Shown: piece by piece, positions 24,079 through 48,644 of the stretch
Numbering within the stretch: position 1 is the stretch's first letter
Layout: the number at the start of each line of letters is the position of its first letter
IMG/VR virus record: IMGVR_UViG_3300033145_003080
Coordinates: 32,001-96,000 of that record
Length of the DNA: 64,000 bases
From: a virus
Reading direction: 5' to 3' (one strand)
Made by a program: the position numbers and the translations under genes
The notes under the pieces: generated by a model
What the model was told of the DNA's origin: nothing
Database searches by the model: none
Seen by the model: only the letters and a program-made list of their open reading frames with translations

Positions 24079-24930
24079 TTATTTACAAACTATATCGAAA
24101 AACGCAGAATCAAGACGCTCATAGTCATTATTTGTTAAATTATGAACATTCAAAGTTTCAGCAAATTCTTTATACGCATCGAGATATTTTTGACAAAAAT
24201 CATCAAGGGCATGGATATGGGGACCTTTGCCGAGCTCTTCGCCATTCTTTTTCCGAAGAAGCAAACTAGCAACGGCTTTACTCACATCATTAAAACCACC
24301 CGAAGGCAACATTTCAGCAAATTTAATTAACCTATCGAATTCCATTGGAGGAACACTGGTATTTCTCATAATCCATTCACATACATAAAGAGGCCGGAGG
24401 ACGTACAGATATTTTTTAACTATCACATCACCCTCAACATTTATGATATATTGAGTAAAGTTTTTCCTTGCCATGTGTTCGTAGTGATAGATGCCCGCTT
24501 TCTTCTTAAAAAAATCAACTGCTAATCGTTTGACGGCAGAGATAACAAAGGGGCGTTCCATGTATACAATAGGAGAATAAAGCCATTCTGCCAAGGCTGG
24601 ATTTCCTTTTGATATCAGCTCCATTACTTTAGAAATATCAAATCCGACAAAATCAAGATCTTCCCTCTCGAGACTGCGAATAAAACTACTCGTTGCAATA
24701 TCGCCTTTATTCCGATCGATAACTTCACGACGTGGTTTTACTGTAAAATAAGCACCTGGCCTGCGTACGTAAATGAACCGGATATCATTATCACTATCTT
24801 CAGATGCAAAGCCCCAAGCTTTACTACCAGATTCGCAGGCGTAGATAATTTTGAAATTCTCTAAAATTTCGATTTCTTGTAATACTTCAAGAATTCGTTC
24901 TTTTTTAAATACTTCAATCGATCGGCTCAA
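24079..24930 (-). CDS. DNA-polymerase-beta-superfamily nucleotidyltransferase (RlaP/YcgL, PF10127-like)
   Basis: YACESGSKAWGFASEDSDNDIRFIYV, KGNP..EWLYSPIVY, KKYLYVLRP; TTG start after GGAGG. Confidence 0.9.
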   Translation of the reverse strand: MSRSIEVFKKERILEVLQEIEILENFKIIYACESGSKAWGFASEDSDNDIRFIYVRRPGAYFTVKPRREVIDRNKGDIATSSFIRSLEREDLDFVGFDISKVMELISKGNPALAEWLYSPIVYMERPFVISAVKRLAVDFFKKKAGIYHYEHMARKNFTQYIINVEGDVIVKKYLYVLRPLYVCEWIMRNTSVPPMEFDRLIKFAEMLPSGGFNDVSKAVASLLLRKKNGEELGKGPHIHALDDFCQKYLDAYKEFAETLNVHNLTNNDYERLDSAFFDIVCK

Positions 24931-24960
24931 TTGTACCTCCTTTATAAATAAAAAAAAAGA

Positions 24961-25058
24961 GTGAGTGGGACGTTCCAAAGATCGAACAGACGAAGAAGCG
25001 GGTAGCCATTATCGCTGTTCGAAAGGGAAACCCTCCCGGAATTCCCACGCCCACTCAC
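24961..25058 (-). ncRNA. unclassified ~98-nt structured RNA
   Basis: GTGAGTGGG/CCCACTCAC closing stem, TCGAACAG/CTGTTCGA inner stem, GGG-TTT-CCC side hairpin, 3' U-tract. Confidence 0.6.
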
Positions 25059-25102: not shown

Positions 25103-25762
25103 TTAATCATTTCTTTTTAACCACCGCTTTACAGTTGTGGGGCTAACACCATATTTGTCACCAGTTTTTTTATATCCAAAACTCCCAACACTTCTAATTA
25201 ATTTTTCTTTATCAATATTTTTTATTATACGCCTTTCTTTACTCTCACATTTAGTACACCGTGTGGATTCTTGTAAAATTTTTTTGCCACATTCACATCT
25301 TTTCTTTGGTAATTTTTTACACTTAATATTTCTTCCTGTAAAGGTTGGTAATTGACTATCACAATTTGGACAAACTAACCTTAAGTTTTTTTGTCTATTA
25401 TCATTTCTGACACCGTTTATGTGATCCATTATAAGTACAAGCGGTTTATTTTTCCATTTTTTTATTCCACAAATGTAACATTTATATTTTAATAGCCCTA
25501 AATTAATCAATCTTTTTTTTAGTCTTTTTCCTTTATATGTTGAATTTTTTACCATTATTTTATTTAAAGACATCGGGCTGGATCTACCACCATATCTCCG
25601 ACCTAAAAAATGGGGCCAAATTATCTTAAGATAGTTTATTCTTTTTTTTACAGAACAGGGGTTAGCATGTGGATTTAGACCCAACTCTCTCATTACAGCG
25701 GAGGTGGTAACATTGTTTTTAACAGCTTTTCTTAATTGTTCATCTGTCCAAGTTCTTTTCAT
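25103..25762 (-). CDS. HNH endonuclease inside the tRNA/ncRNA cluster
   Basis: CYICG..DHINGVRNDNRQKNLRLVCPNCDSQ; own TTGACT-17-TATAAT promoter 5 nt before the ATG. Confidence 0.9.
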   Translation of the reverse strand: MKRTWTDEQLRKAVKNNVTTSAVMRELGLNPHANPCSVKKRINYLKIIWPHFLGRRYGGRSSPMSLNKIMVKNSTYKGKRLKKRLINLGLLKYKCYICGIKKWKNKPLVLIMDHINGVRNDNRQKNLRLVCPNCDSQLPTFTGRNIKCKKLPKKRCECGKKILQESTRCTKCESKERRIIKNIDKEKLIRSVGSFGYKKTGDKYGVSPTTVKRWLKRND

Positions 25763-25823: not shown

Positions 25824-25897
25824 CCGCCCGTAAGAGAATCGAACTCTTTCAATTAAGGAATTTAGAGTTCCTCGCCTTCCCATTTGGCTAACGGGCG
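25824..25897 (-). tRNA. amber suppressor tRNA, anticodon CUA
   Basis: Acceptor CGCCCGT/ACGGGCG plus G73, D arm GCC-AAATGGGAA-GGC, anticodon arm AGGAA-CT[CTA]AA-TTCCT, T arm AAGAG-TTCGATT-CTCTT; CCA not encoded. Confidence 0.88.
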
Positions 25898-26020: not shown

Positions 26021-26116
26021 GTGGGAGTGATGTGGATTCGAACCACTGGCACCGGCACATACAGCATTTGAGCTGATCCTGTGTAAGGGGTTGAACACTC
26101 GTTCTATCACTCTCAC
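26021..26116 (-). ncRNA. tRNA-like RNA 3 (long acceptor, 4-bp T stem, no canonical anticodon arm)
   Basis: GTGAGAGTGAT/ATCACTCCCAC stem, GTGG-TTCGAAT-CCAC T arm, GAAC-GAGT-GTTC hairpin. Confidence 0.6.
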
Positions 26117-26124
26117 CTTTTTTT

Positions 26125-26210
26125 TGGTGGCAGGAATAGGATTTGAACCTACCTGGCGAATTTCAGGAGCCGGCGGTTAACATGGGTCTACATAGTAGCC
26201 ACTTACTGCC
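26125..26210 (-). ncRNA. tRNA-like RNA 2 (acceptor, T arm and CCA; no canonical anticodon arm)
   Basis: GGCAGTA/TCCTGCC-A-CCA, GTAGG-TTCAAAT-CCTAT. Confidence 0.6.
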
Positions 26211-26234
26211 AACGTTGGACTCCTTACACATATA

Positions 26235-26308
26235 TGGTGGCAGGGGTAGGATTTGAACCTACGCAAACCCGTGAAACCGGGCATGTCTTTGCGCTGCATC
26301 ACCCCGCC
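26235..26308 (-). tRNA. aberrant tRNA (tRNA-like RNA 1) with a shortened anticodon arm containing UCA
   Basis: GGCGGGG/CCCTGCC-A-CCA, GTAGG-TTCAAAT-CCTAC, anticodon arm CCCG-GTTTCA-CGGG (6-nt loop). Confidence 0.6.
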
Positions 26309-26329: not shown

Positions 26330-26641
26330 TTAAGCCAATGGTAGCTTACTGAATATTTTTCCATCGTCAATACATGCGATGGCAGTTAATTGATTATCTA
26401 TATCAGGCTCATTGAATCCGACGAATTGTTTTTCGCGGCGTCCGAGCTCTTCCTACCAGTACTCCAGTGCTGCGAGATGAGGAACCCCGAGACATATCAG
26501 GGTTTCATTGTTCCATTCCCGGTAAAGAGCGATATCACCTCTCAAAGAGTACTCTGCAAGCGCGTGGTTGCCCTGGACGAAGTTATACTTCGGCCCAAGA
26601 TCCTTACGCAGCAACAGGTATAGTTTCTTCGATTTTGACAT
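26330..26641 (-). CDS. peptidyl-tRNA hydrolase 2 (Pth2)-like protein with an in-frame TAG at codon 63 (26453-26455)
   Basis: KLYLLLRKDL..VQGNHA..W..ETLICL..LEYW*EELGRR..FNEPDIDNQLTAIA..FSKLPLA; family motifs lie on both sides of the TAG. Confidence 0.8.
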
Positions 26642-26997: not shown

Positions 26998-27066
26998 TTA
27001 GGGCGGTTTGCGTTTACGGGGATAAAGCTACGGTGGGTGTTGAGTAGTAATCTATAATGGTAACAT
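26998..27066 (-). CDS. leader peptide with two in-frame amber codons: MLPL*ITTQHPP*LYPRKRKPP-TAA
   Basis: AAGGAG RBS at 27082-27077; TAG at 27052-27054 and 27028-27030; Pro-Pro before the second TAG and the final TAA. Confidence 0.65.
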
Positions 27067-27194
27067 ATAATTTTTGCTCCTTGCTAATAATATACGTTTT
27101 GGTGAATGAAATTATTTAATTTTTTATAATATTTTAAAAAAGGTAGATAGCTCTGCACGCTCAAGGGCAATTGGGTTCTGCCACTGCACACGAA

Positions 27195-28351: not shown

Positions 28352-28954
28352 TTACCAATCGAATAAAGATAAATCCTCATACTCCGGACCATCCCTGTCT
28401 ATTTTGAGATACTGACACCCATTCTTCTTGGCAAGCTTAATAAGATGCTTAAATGCCTGGGAATATCCTTTATAATCGGGAAGGGCTAATTTCGGATCAA
28501 TCCAAACAACCCAGCCGTATTCAAATTTATACACTATCAATTTACGTATATGGTGTTCATCAATATTATCATTTGACCACTCCCAATCAACACCTTCTGA
28601 ATCCATTTTGCTGATATGGGATGTTGATACAATAAGGTATTTCTGTATCTCATATTGCGGGCCAGGATCTTTTTTGGGTTCTTTTGTGATAAGATCCTTT
28701 GCTTCTTTAACACGTTTTGTAACTTTACCAGTTCCTGCACACCAACCACACTTGTCTTTAAACCCATCCCGACAACCGCAAGGCACAAGAGAGGCGATAC
28801 ATGGACCAACTGAATAGGCGCCACCACTGCTATGTTCAAGTTTCCCTTGCCACAAAATGGAGGTCATAGCCATCACATTACCATAACCATACTCGTCGCA
28901 AATAGCTTTTATTTTTTGAGTTCCTTGTTTAGTATATTGTGGCATGGGACCCAT
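28352..28954 (-). CDS. hypothetical protein with C-terminal DUF5983-like domain
   Basis: STSHIS..YGW..LIKLAKKNGCQYLKIDRDG. Confidence 0.65.
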   Translation of the reverse strand: MGPMPQYTKQGTQKIKAICDEYGYGNVMAMTSILWQGKLEHSSGGAYSVGPCIASLVPCGCRDGFKDKCGWCAGTGKVTKRVKEAKDLITKEPKKDPGPQYEIQKYLIVSTSHISKMDSEGVDWEWSNDNIDEHHIRKLIVYKFEYGWVVWIDPKLALPDYKGYSQAFKHLIKLAKKNGCQYLKIDRDGPEYEDLSLFDW

Positions 28955-28969
28955 GCTACCTCCTTTTTT

Positions 28970-29803
28970 TTAAATATCATATTCCTTAGCAAAATTCAAA
29001 GCTTTTTTAAACGGACTATCAACAGCACCAAAATCAGCGGATAGTTGTATTACATTTGTAAATCGATATTTCAACAATCCGGCAAATTGACCAATCAACT
29101 CGAGATATTCATCTTGCTCATCAGGGGAAAATCCGTCATATTTTCCATTTTCGAATATAAATGATGAGCCAAAATGCTTACCGAGCTGATACCCTTCATA
29201 ACACACGCCGAATGTACCGGGTTTATTACCAAGCATCCCGGTTTTTAGTCTAACTATACTGCCTGGGAGCATTATTTGGTGCGGTACCTTTGAAATATTA
29301 TGCAAGCATTCTTTATGAATGATATGGCAATTTAAATTGCCAAGCTTTCCACATATCGGGCAAAGAATTGATGTGGCATCCTTCCGTTCAATGTTCCATC
29401 TTGCAACAAGTACATTAATATAATTAATTAAATCGTCTTGGGTTCCAGCTATAGCAGCCATTGCGAGATTATCCATTGAAGCAATGCTGTGGAGAGTATC
29501 ATGAATTTTACCATTCGTATACATCTTTTCTTTGATATATTCGATGGCCTCGCGGCTACCATCACAGTGAATCTCACCAGATTTAGGATTGATGTGGACA
29601 GTTACACTCATCCACGGTTTTGGATAAGATTCGGGATGTTCATTCAATATCTTTTTGGCATGCTCTACAATTGCTTTTTTAATATCAGCATAGTAAGGAT
29701 CGTGGCCGAAGAAACCTTGATCGATTTCTTCAAGTATTTTGGCGAGCATTTGATACGGGGATTGTATTTGTTGAATTTCTTCAATGTATTCCTTGTCAGA
29801 CAA
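28970..29803 (-). CDS. hypothetical multidomain phage protein
   Basis: ORF; C-terminal GVCYE..FIFENGKYDGFS module. Confidence 0.7.
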   Translation of the reverse strand: MSDKEYIEEIQQIQSPYQMLAKILEEIDQGFFGHDPYYADIKKAIVEHAKKILNEHPESYPKPWMSVTVHINPKSGEIHCDGSREAIEYIKEKMYTNGKIHDTLHSIASMDNLAMAAIAGTQDDLINYINVLVARWNIERKDATSILCPICGKLGNLNCHIIHKECLHNISKVPHQIMLPGSIVRLKTGMLGNKPGTFGVCYEGYQLGKHFGSSFIFENGKYDGFSPDEQDEYLELIGQFAGLLKYRFTNVIQLSADFGAVDSPFKKALNFAKEYDI

Positions 29804-31579: not shown

Positions 31580-32068
31580 CTATTCTTCTTCTGTAGACTG
31601 TGAAAATATTGTTTTAAAATTATGCTTTACATACTCCCTGATTTCAGCTGATATCTTTTTCGTGGGAACCTGACTTCCTTTACATGGAAAAAAGGGCAAT
31701 CGTTTTATATCTGTAAAACAGATTGATTGAGGTTTAGCACAGCTTGTACTCATTTCGGGGCCATGGCCATATTGAAAGTATTTCTTATCTTCTTCAGGCA
31801 TTATTTGATTAGTAGGACCGACAATCTCAGTTTTGGCAATACCAACAATACCACCTTTTGGAAGTTTAGTGATATCTATATTCAGTTTTTTATCAATCAT
31901 CCATGGAAGCATGAACCAATCTGGCCATGCTTTTTTGGGAGAATGTAATAAAACCCAATCACCGGGTTTCGGCAAGTGAACGTGCCAGCTCCTTGTTTTC
32001 GTCCTGATATAACCTCTCAGGAGCGCTTCTGACCATGGTTGGCTATTTGACATTAACCATAGATACAT
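31580..32068 (-). CDS. ASCH-domain protein
   Basis: SNSQPWSEALLRG..KTRSW..GDWVLLH..PKGGIVGIA. Confidence 0.75.
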   Translation of the reverse strand: MYLWLMSNSQPWSEALLRGYIRTKTRSWHVHLPKPGDWVLLHSPKKAWPDWFMLPWMIDKKLNIDITKLPKGGIVGIAKTEIVGPTNQIMPEEDKKYFQYGHGPEMSTSCAKPQSICFTDIKRLPFFPCKGSQVPTKKISAEIREYVKHNFKTIFSQSTEEE

Positions 32069-48243: not shown

Positions 48244-48644
48244 TGGTGGAGGTGAGGGGAGTCGAACCCCTGTCCACAATGCCTTCTTTTTGAACCTCTA
48301 CAATGCTTAGTCATGATTTAATCTCACTGCTATCAGCTTCCACAGACAGAATCAGACAACAGCCAGCTCCTTAATTTAACCTGCTGGTTGAAGCACCACA
48401 ACAGGCGAGGATTCTAAGGCTACCCAGTGATTCCGAATCCACTCCTCACTGAGTTTGTCATCTTTTTATTAGATGACGGCTATGTCCTGCCGGGCATTTG
48501 CATAGCAAAGTGCACCAAAAGCAAGACAGAAATCGACATTAGATTTGCCAATTAGAGTTATGACCGATATTTAACGAGGCCAACGATCATCCTCGGCATG
48601 CAGTTCAAACGTCCGTTCATCATGTCGAAAACCAATACACCCCC
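48244..48644 (-). ncRNA. ssrA: tmRNA (transfer-messenger RNA)
   Basis: 5' GGGGGTGTATTGGTTTTCGAC, 3' GGACAGGGGTTCGACTCCCCTCACCTCCACCA, G3:U70 pair, internal tag ORF 48549-48469. Confidence 0.93.

Follow-up and report, generated by a model that had tools for sequence, protein, structure and literature searches.

An in-frame UAG probably makes synthesis of a phage Pth2-like protein depend on stop-codon read-through

Architecture of the locus

The window analysed here is a 64,000-nt stretch of viral DNA (IMG/VR record IMGVR_UViG_3300033145_003080, positions 32,001 to 96,000) within a 149-kb contig that is estimated to be 80% complete. On its minus strand lies a short gene for a Pth2-like protein whose frame is interrupted by one TAG codon, together with a leader open reading frame (ORF), a partner gene, tRNA-like RNAs and a tRNA gene with the anticodon CUA:

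27111-27138, minus strand: A+T-rich block upstream of the leader (counterparts at 1440-1475 in the relative L001 and 5530-5560 in the relative L003)
27081..27076, minus strand: AAGGAG site upstream of the leader ORF
26998..27066, minus strand: leader ORF, ~24 codons with two in-frame TAGs, ending in TAA
26604..26930, minus strand: partner gene, 108 aa, overlapping the start of the Pth2-like gene by 38 nt
26330..26641, minus strand: Pth2-like gene, 103 codons including one in-frame TAG, then TAA (from translation, homologues and the AF2 model)
26456..26641, minus strand: N-terminal 62 codons of this gene, the entire product if UAG terminates
26455..26453, minus strand: codon 63, an in-frame TAG that falls within helix 56-68 in the AF2 model
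26330..26452, minus strand: C-terminal 40 codons and TAA, translated only after UAG read-through
26235..26308, minus strand: tRNA-like RNA immediately 3' of the Pth2-like stop, anticodon loop of 6 nt (ARAGORN 'tRNA-???'; Rfam tRNA, 34.8 bits)
25824..25897, minus strand: tRNA with anticodon CUA (ARAGORN; Rfam tRNA, 54.3 bits)

The Pth2-like frame opens with an ATG (26641..26639), runs through 62 sense codons, the last four of which read L-E-Y-W, meets the TAG and closes at a TAA (26332..26330). A list of ORFs made with code 11 displays it only up to the TAG. The initial annotation, from which the strand of the gene was missing, had stated that the ORF ends at LEYW and that the frame runs on for 40 codons to a TAA, and translation confirmed this. 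It had also pointed to EPD..TA and LPL motifs downstream of the stop and to the lack of any other decay. Indeed, E78, P79, D80, T86, A87, L100 and L102 are invariant or near-invariant columns of the family, and both frameshifts and second stops are absent 3' of the TAG. An open stretch of 40 codons is by itself not rare at 37% G+C; that the downstream frame is more than a chance opening follows from its homology to phrog_3668 and to full-length homologues.

The codons beyond the TAG are conserved as coding sequence

Residues 5-96 of the read-through product align with positions 3-102 of the 152-position profile phrog_3668 ('hydrolase'; E 1.8e-7), in a match that crosses the TAG, and residues 64-103 alone still match it (E 0.005). 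In a large protein collection, nine full-length relatives (95-128 aa, 40-64% identity, 94-98% query coverage) were found, along with one 62-residue protein, 87% identical, that ends exactly at the stop of the window's ORF. The contig of this 62-residue protein (L001; Logan SRR26901924, an independent assembly) carries a TAG at codon 63, followed by 40 open codons and a TAA. Thus, the codon-63 TAG is not an assembly error.

The window and L001 share 79-84% nucleotide identity, and their synonymous divergence is similar on the two sides of the TAG (dS 0.76 upstream, 0.82 downstream). With a dN/dS of 0.09 before the TAG and 0.18 after it, the downstream codons have been under purifying selection; the differences there fall 4, 7 and 14 times at codon positions 1, 2 and 3. 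In the next relative (L003/L006, 64% identity), codon 63 is CAG (Gln) and the gene is TAG-free, and homologues as a whole vary at this column (Q, S, A, K, C, G, Y). The initial annotation had proposed that the full 103-aa product is made only under amber suppression, and it had stated that a plain nonsense mutation would show itself by a sense codon at this site in close relatives and by relaxed downstream selection. We looked for these signs and saw neither. The proposal is supported by the TAG kept in L001 and by the low downstream dN/dS.

These comparisons bear directly on whether the gene is a simple pseudogene, that is, a dispensable gene hit by a recent nonsense mutation. Such a history would agree with a code 11 ORF that stops at codon 62 and with a family that is not universal in phages. 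It is highly improbable in view of L001, which at dS ~0.8 has the same TAG, constrained downstream codons and a frame free of frameshifts or second stops, and in view of the family at large (described below), in which all 19 premature stops are TAG and never TAA or TGA.

The read-through product has a PTH2 fold

An AF2 model built from an alignment of 42 relatives shows one compact domain (pLDDT 94.4, pTM 0.87). Across these 42 sequences Q23, H26, E78, D80 and T86 are invariant, and the last three of them, as well as strands 73-78 and 84-92, all lie beyond the TAG. Of the four core strands, the N-terminal 62-codon piece has only two, and it is without the E-P-D...T-A motif.

When the model was compared with the PDB by Foldseek, ranks 1-13 were all PTH2/Bit1-type structures, with a probability of 1.00 and TM-scores (normalised to query length) of 0.68-0.80. 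They include 2zv3, 3erj, 1q7s, 1xty, 1rlk, 1wn2 and the uncharacterised 2gax; among the matched proteins are M. jannaschii MJ0051, A. fulgidus AF2095, human Bit1 and S. solfataricus Pth2. At the sequence level the likeness is weaker. A Pfam search of the read-through product and of each half gave no match at E <= 1, and PF01981 found nothing at E <= 10 on the whole contig. The family's own profile matches PTH2 chains weakly (E 0.002-0.05), over the N-terminal two thirds. In Sulfolobus Pth2, the lysine of the G-K loop and the aspartate of the D-A-G motif are catalytic. Aligned to 2zv3 by HMMER, the phage protein has a G-K-G-K loop shortened by two residues, and the second lysine of this loop aligns to position 19, which is tyrosine in the window's subgroup and glutamine in most other members. 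The designation 'Pth2-like' in the initial annotation therefore stands for the fold, where the first 13 structural matches agree, and fails at the level of Pfam and of the canonical lysine. For this reason we speak of a PTH2-fold or Pth2-like protein and not of a demonstrated peptidyl-tRNA hydrolase.

The position of the conserved residues also weighs on the idea that the 62-residue piece is itself the functional product and that the downstream frame is conserved for an RNA structure or a separately initiated peptide. The phrog_1866 profile, which matches the N-terminal part alone, could be read in its favour. Against it, the Pth2-like frame contains no in-frame ATG, GTG or TTG start 3' of the TAG, the downstream differences from L001 lie mostly at third codon positions, the two downstream strands are needed to complete the sheet in the model, and the invariant E78, D80 and T86 would be lost. 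We give this idea hardly any credence.

A suppressor-type tRNA adjoins the gene

The tRNA(CUA) lies downstream of the Pth2-like gene on the same strand, separated from it by 433 nt. Its anticodon loop reads C-U-CUA-A-A; it has C1:G72, G73 and a short variable region, and CCA is not encoded. Its normal T loop and the GG of its D loop set it apart from tRNA-Pyl. In the ARAGORN search this was the sole canonical tRNA on the contig, which means that it does not belong to a bank of tRNAs.

The same neighbourhood recurs across the family, which we assembled from two scans of IMG/VR as 92 different loci (86 distinct sequences, including the window and L001). Within flanks of 2.5-3 kb, ARAGORN found a CUA tRNA in 46 of 50 and 31 of 42 loci (~85%), usually co-oriented with the Pth2-like gene and often only 1-50 nt after its stop. 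At three more loci the suppressor-type tRNA is UCA or UUA instead. Within the sequence examined, a CUA tRNA is present for 17 of the 19 members that bear an internal TAG. The CUA tRNA of L001 (2597-2671), which has an 8-nt anticodon loop with an extra A 5' of C-U-CUA-A-C, was missed by ARAGORN and scores 41.8 bits with Rfam. When the nearest non-suppressor tRNAs of 49 distinct CUA tRNAs were determined, they scattered over 21 types, and this scatter permits no call of an amino-acid identity.

We infer that the tRNA(CUA) of the window is expressed and charged, and that it decodes codon 63. The amino acid that it would insert is, as a guess, glutamine, because the nearest TAG-free relative has CAG at this codon.

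Between the Pth2-like stop and the tRNA(CUA) lie three tRNA-like RNAs (26021-26308, minus strand). The first is the RNA with the 6-nt anticodon loop listed above. The other two (~26125-26215 and 26021-26116) keep the T arm and the 3' end of the acceptor and are not recognised by Rfam. At a loose threshold, Rfam found no ribozyme or other family in the interval between the Pth2-like gene and the tRNA. A phage tmRNA is encoded elsewhere in the window (48244-48644, minus strand), and tmRNA genes occur in several other loci of the family.

Both its fold and its steady association with stop-reading tRNAs, whichever of the three anticodons they carry, suggest that the Pth2-like protein may be an ester hydrolase acting on the stop-reading tRNA or on read-through products.

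The partner gene and other neighbours

Directly upstream of the Pth2-like gene, orthologues of the partner gene (~100 codons) were found in 60 distinct loci. They share the motif R-H-x-H-[ILV]-A-Y-C-x-L-R-G-x-x-Y-E-Q, with an invariant R..H...E pattern. The protein is modelled as a long helical hairpin (pLDDT 89.5) and belongs to no Pfam family and no PHROG. Comparison of the model with the PDB gave no match below E 1, the hits being generic helical hairpins; a weak resemblance to the arm with which seryl-tRNA synthetase binds tRNA (E 3.8) serves as a lead only. In eight loci (L044, L047-L049 and L051-L054) the partner is fused in frame to the Pth2-like domain. Because of these fusions in several phages, the two proteins probably act together.

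Farther downstream, the window encodes an HNH endonuclease (25103-25762, minus strand) and then a nucleotidyltransferase of the RlaP family (24079-24978, minus strand; PF10127, E 5e-67), a family linked to RNA repair; the RlaP gene lies three genes downstream both in the window and in L002/L003. The cultured jumbo phage Stenotrophomonas phage RAS14 (L155; OP752703.1, 88311-89096) encodes a 261-aa protein whose N-terminal half carries HD-type motifs and whose C-terminal half is a Pth2-like domain. This fused gene adjoins a gene for valyl-tRNA synthetase, with no tRNA within 2.5 kb. Stenotrophomonas phage CM1 likewise has an HD domain and a Pth2-like domain joined in one gene. The HD fusion, the RlaP neighbour and the tmRNA genes may point to the biology of tRNA 3' ends.

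A leader with two TAGs precedes the operon

The leader ORF reads M-L-P-L-TAG-I-T-T-Q-H-P-P-TAG-L-Y-P-R-K-R-K-P-P-TAA. Both TAGs are present in the leaders of L001 and L003, as are H-P-P before the second TAG and K-R-K-P-P before the TAA, and the proline codons differ synonymously between the leaders (CCA CCG, CCA CCA and CCG CCG). The initial annotation had treated the leader as a gate; as sequence this is borne out by a two-TAG leader conserved in three diverged relatives, which may have a regulatory role. L003 keeps the two-TAG leader even though its Pth2-like gene has CAG at codon 63; in this lineage, the TAGs of the leader are thus older and more constant than the one in the gene.

Between the leader and the tRNA there is no terminator-like site, an arrangement compatible with a single transcript that would run from the leader to the tRNA. 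Just upstream of the ribosome-binding site of the leader, the window, L001 and L003 share the conserved A+T-rich block A-A-C-C-A-A-A-A-C-G-T-A-T-A-T-T-A, which could be the promoter of the operon.

In-frame TAGs are specific to the Pth2-like gene

Exactly one in-frame TAG is found in 19 of the 86 distinct family members. It stands at codon 3 or 4 in five members, in the loop 35-42 in eight, and otherwise near codons 52, 63, 65, 75 and 95; these are variable surface or loop columns, and they differ between lineages. The differing codon positions alone indicate that the in-frame TAG has arisen many times. On the family tree, which is poorly resolved, the TAG-bearers are scattered and the 19 TAG rows require at least 15 changes. 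None of the 86 members has an internal TAA or TGA, even though these AT-rich genomes use TAA more than any other stop. The locus L142 shows a possible early TAA, with no matching tRNA. In L130, L135 and L143, where the adjoining tRNA is UCA (opal) or UUA (ochre) and not CUA, the Pth2-like gene contains no in-frame stop.

The partner gene provides a matched control, being of similar length and sharing the operon and the genomes. It has an in-frame TAG in 0 of 60 cases, as against 19 of ~86-87 for the Pth2-like gene (Fisher p 2e-5). The Pth2-like gene also seldom ends in TAG (4 of 83 true terminators), compared with 12-20% of genes genome-wide. By the measure of these sequence comparisons, the in-frame TAG appears to be a trait of the family that is specific to the Pth2-like gene. 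It is an optional trait, since most members, including the L003/L006 relatives, are TAG-free (67 of 86).

A neutral account of this pattern has to be weighed. In the presence of an efficient suppressor, a change from CAG, AAG or GAG to TAG in a co-expressed gene would be nearly harmless, and TAGs would drift in without any regulatory role. The variable columns at which the TAGs sit, the lineage-specific sites, the majority of TAG-free members and the CAG of the nearest TAG-free relative, which is one transition away, are all what drift would produce. Drift does not account for the partner gene, however, which escaped TAGs altogether, nor for the two leader TAGs at fixed places in three relatives or the persistence of the codon-63 TAG over dS ~0.8. 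Moreover, other candidates for read-through in the genome resolve as adjacent in-frame genes, with one exception (see below). We consider neutral tolerance unlikely.

The genome uses the standard code

Self-trained codon-usage gene sets were made for G000, the 149-kb contig of the window, and for three further contigs, from TAG-bearing relatives (G001-G003). In all four, code 11 gave the best coverage and score; for the window's contig, the coverage was 0.901 compared with 0.886 when TAG was taken as sense. TAG ends 25 of 173, 20 of 165, 29 of 144 and 34 of 218 genes in the four contigs, that is 12-20% (14% in the window's contig), and the frames that follow these terminators are short or non-coding by score, in the window's contig also those behind large structural genes. 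As TAG is the normal terminator of so many genes, there is no global recoding.

This result speaks to the reading in which the phage has reassigned TAG genome-wide (code 15, TAG = Gln) and the Pth2-like gene is merely one of many recoded genes. The phage-encoded tRNA(CUA) would fit such a phage, as would weak relatives of the Pth2-like gene in TAG-recoded Lak megaphages. Set against the scores and terminators of G000-G003, reassignment is very unlikely. The best other candidate for a read-through gene, G000 127998-129278, was rejected as such, because it resolves into two in-frame genes separated by a TAG, a GGAG site and an ATG.

One exception concerns G000 28501-29418 (minus strand; -3499..-2582 in window coordinates, outside the window), where a 175-codon ORF ending in TAG is followed by 129 in-frame codons. 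The coding score after the TAG is mildly positive, an AGGAGG overlaps the TAG, and the phage collection contains no homologues. By sequence, the region could be either a second read-through gene or two genes.

Backup stops are not in excess after TAG terminators (p 0.53). Given also the share of genes that end in TAG, a strong suppressor should come at a high cost, and this favours suppression that is weak or brief. Neither a release factor nor a Gln- or Glu-tRNA synthetase is encoded on the phage contig.

Discussion

How read-through could control the Pth2-like protein

Judging from sequence conservation, synthesis of the full-length Pth2-like protein probably depends on UAG read-through, and this dependency is probably both real and selected. 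Termination by RF1 at codon 63 would yield a 62-residue fragment in which half of the fold and the E-P-D...T-A site are missing. Reading of the UAG as an amino acid would instead yield the full 103-residue protein. The most likely reader of the UAG would be the phage's own tRNA(CUA), encoded ~430 nt downstream and probably on the same transcript, such that the yield of full-length protein would track the activity of the suppressor relative to RF1 termination. In this arrangement a UAG leader, a helical partner, the Pth2-like protein and a suppressor tRNA would form a cassette carried by large standard-code phages. We infer further that the dependency on UAG is adaptive, serving as a timer or a feedback rather than being a tolerated accident, and that the protein would be a hydrolase which acts on a tRNA ester bond in connection with the function of the suppressor tRNA.

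The sign of such a loop could be positive or negative. In the first case, the UAG would act as a lock that opens once the tRNA works; in the second, the Pth2-like protein would act as a brake that limits suppression. A brake would fit better than a lock with TAG terminators that are kept without an excess of backup stops.

One form of negative loop resembles that of prfB. In it, the Pth2-like protein, perhaps with the tRNA, would lower UAG read-through, either by deacylating the suppressor or by releasing the chain at UAG, and the UAG in its own gene would make its synthesis self-limiting and keep suppression at a low set point; the requirement for read-through is common to this loop and to the explanation that we favour. 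Such a loop would reconcile a suppressor tRNA with a genome in which TAG terminates 12-20% of genes without backup stops. It would also agree with the linkage of the family to suppressor-type tRNAs of all three anticodons, and with a fold known from ester hydrolases that act on tRNA. It is weakened by the absence of the canonical catalytic lysine and by the many family members without an internal TAG; as these are the majority, a loop through a coding TAG cannot be essential to the function of the family. We regard this loop as possible, on balance rather doubtful.

Returning to a selected dependency on read-through, a more far-reaching version would make the Pth2-like protein a dedicated hydrolase of the phage's stop-reading tRNA and the cassette a self-contained homeostat of read-through. 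The hydrolase, possibly guided by the partner, would strip the amino acid or the nascent chain from the stop-reading tRNA. The UAGs in its own mRNA and in the leader would then hold read-through at a set level while UAG stays a terminator. We put this version forward as a speculation with a small chance of being right.

Implications

Suppressor tRNAs are common in large standard-code phages, and the cassette supplies a conserved candidate target right beside the tRNA. That members of the Pth2-like family so regularly occur next to stop-reading tRNAs points to a function common to both. Should the dependency be real, it would amount to a compact natural switch or feedback made of a tRNA, a stop codon and a tRNA-directed hydrolase, and the cassette may represent a step between the standard code and the full TAG recoding of crAss-like and Lak phages. 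The four-part operon of ~1.3 kb would, if the proposal is true, be a ready-made part for synthetic genetic-code expansion, and a true homeostat would offer a natural and portable means of controlling ambiguity in the genetic code.

Comparison with known systems

The phage protein shares its alpha/beta fold with archaeal and eukaryotic Pth2 (2zv3, 3erj and 1xty, and Bit1/PTRH2, 1q7s; TM 0.69-0.80). Further likenesses are a hydrophobic first strand followed by R-x-D-L, the motif Q-x-x-H-A, and an acidic D followed by T-A-I-A. The phage family differs from these enzymes in the missing PF01981 match, the two-residue deletion in the loop and the tyrosine or glutamine in place of the canonical lysine. 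Its members are also ~100 aa long, phage-borne and linked to suppressor tRNAs.

In prfB, the gene for RF2, an in-frame UGA at a fixed, conserved site is bypassed by a +1 frameshift, and RF2 itself reads this stop. As in the phage gene, synthesis depends on the decoding of a stop that lies in frame. By contrast, the bypass in the phage gene would need a suppressor tRNA, and the site of the stop varies between lineages. Viral stop read-through, as in the Q-beta A1 protein and retroviral gag-pol, relies on near-cognate host tRNAs, has low efficiency and gives two products that are both functional. The window's gene resembles these cases in that one frame could give two products by stop decoding; it differs in that its short product is without the conserved site and in that the virus brings a cognate suppressor.

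For code 15 phages (TAG = Gln; crAss-like, Lak and others), it is established that they encode suppressor tRNAs and have late genes recoded at TAG (10.1101/2021.08.26.457843; PMC9523058). There too, a tRNA(CUA) and in-frame TAGs make products dependent on suppression, which has been proposed to time expression. Those phages carry in-frame TAGs in many genes, mainly late and lysis genes, and their coding density drops under code 11. The window's phage, by contrast, reads best in code 11, and it has in-frame TAGs nowhere but in a single small gene family and in a leader near the tRNA. The preprint on recoded phages (10.1101/2021.08.26.457843) does not mention peptidyl-tRNA hydrolase. In Xanthomonas phage XacN1, 18 amber stops were read through in silico and no target gene of its CUA tRNAs was found (PMC5852040). 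XacN1 is likewise a large standard-code phage with CUA tRNAs in which TAG is still a terminator; the difference is that in the window's phage a candidate target adjoins the tRNA.

A full-text literature search found no paper that joins a suppressor tRNA with Pth2 and no published description of the cassette. Suppressor-dependent phage genes as such are already known. What is new here is a gene, dependent by all appearances on a suppressor, that is confined to a self-contained cassette in standard-code phages, and the same pairing of a Pth2-like gene with a suppressor tRNA recurs in dozens of distant large phages.
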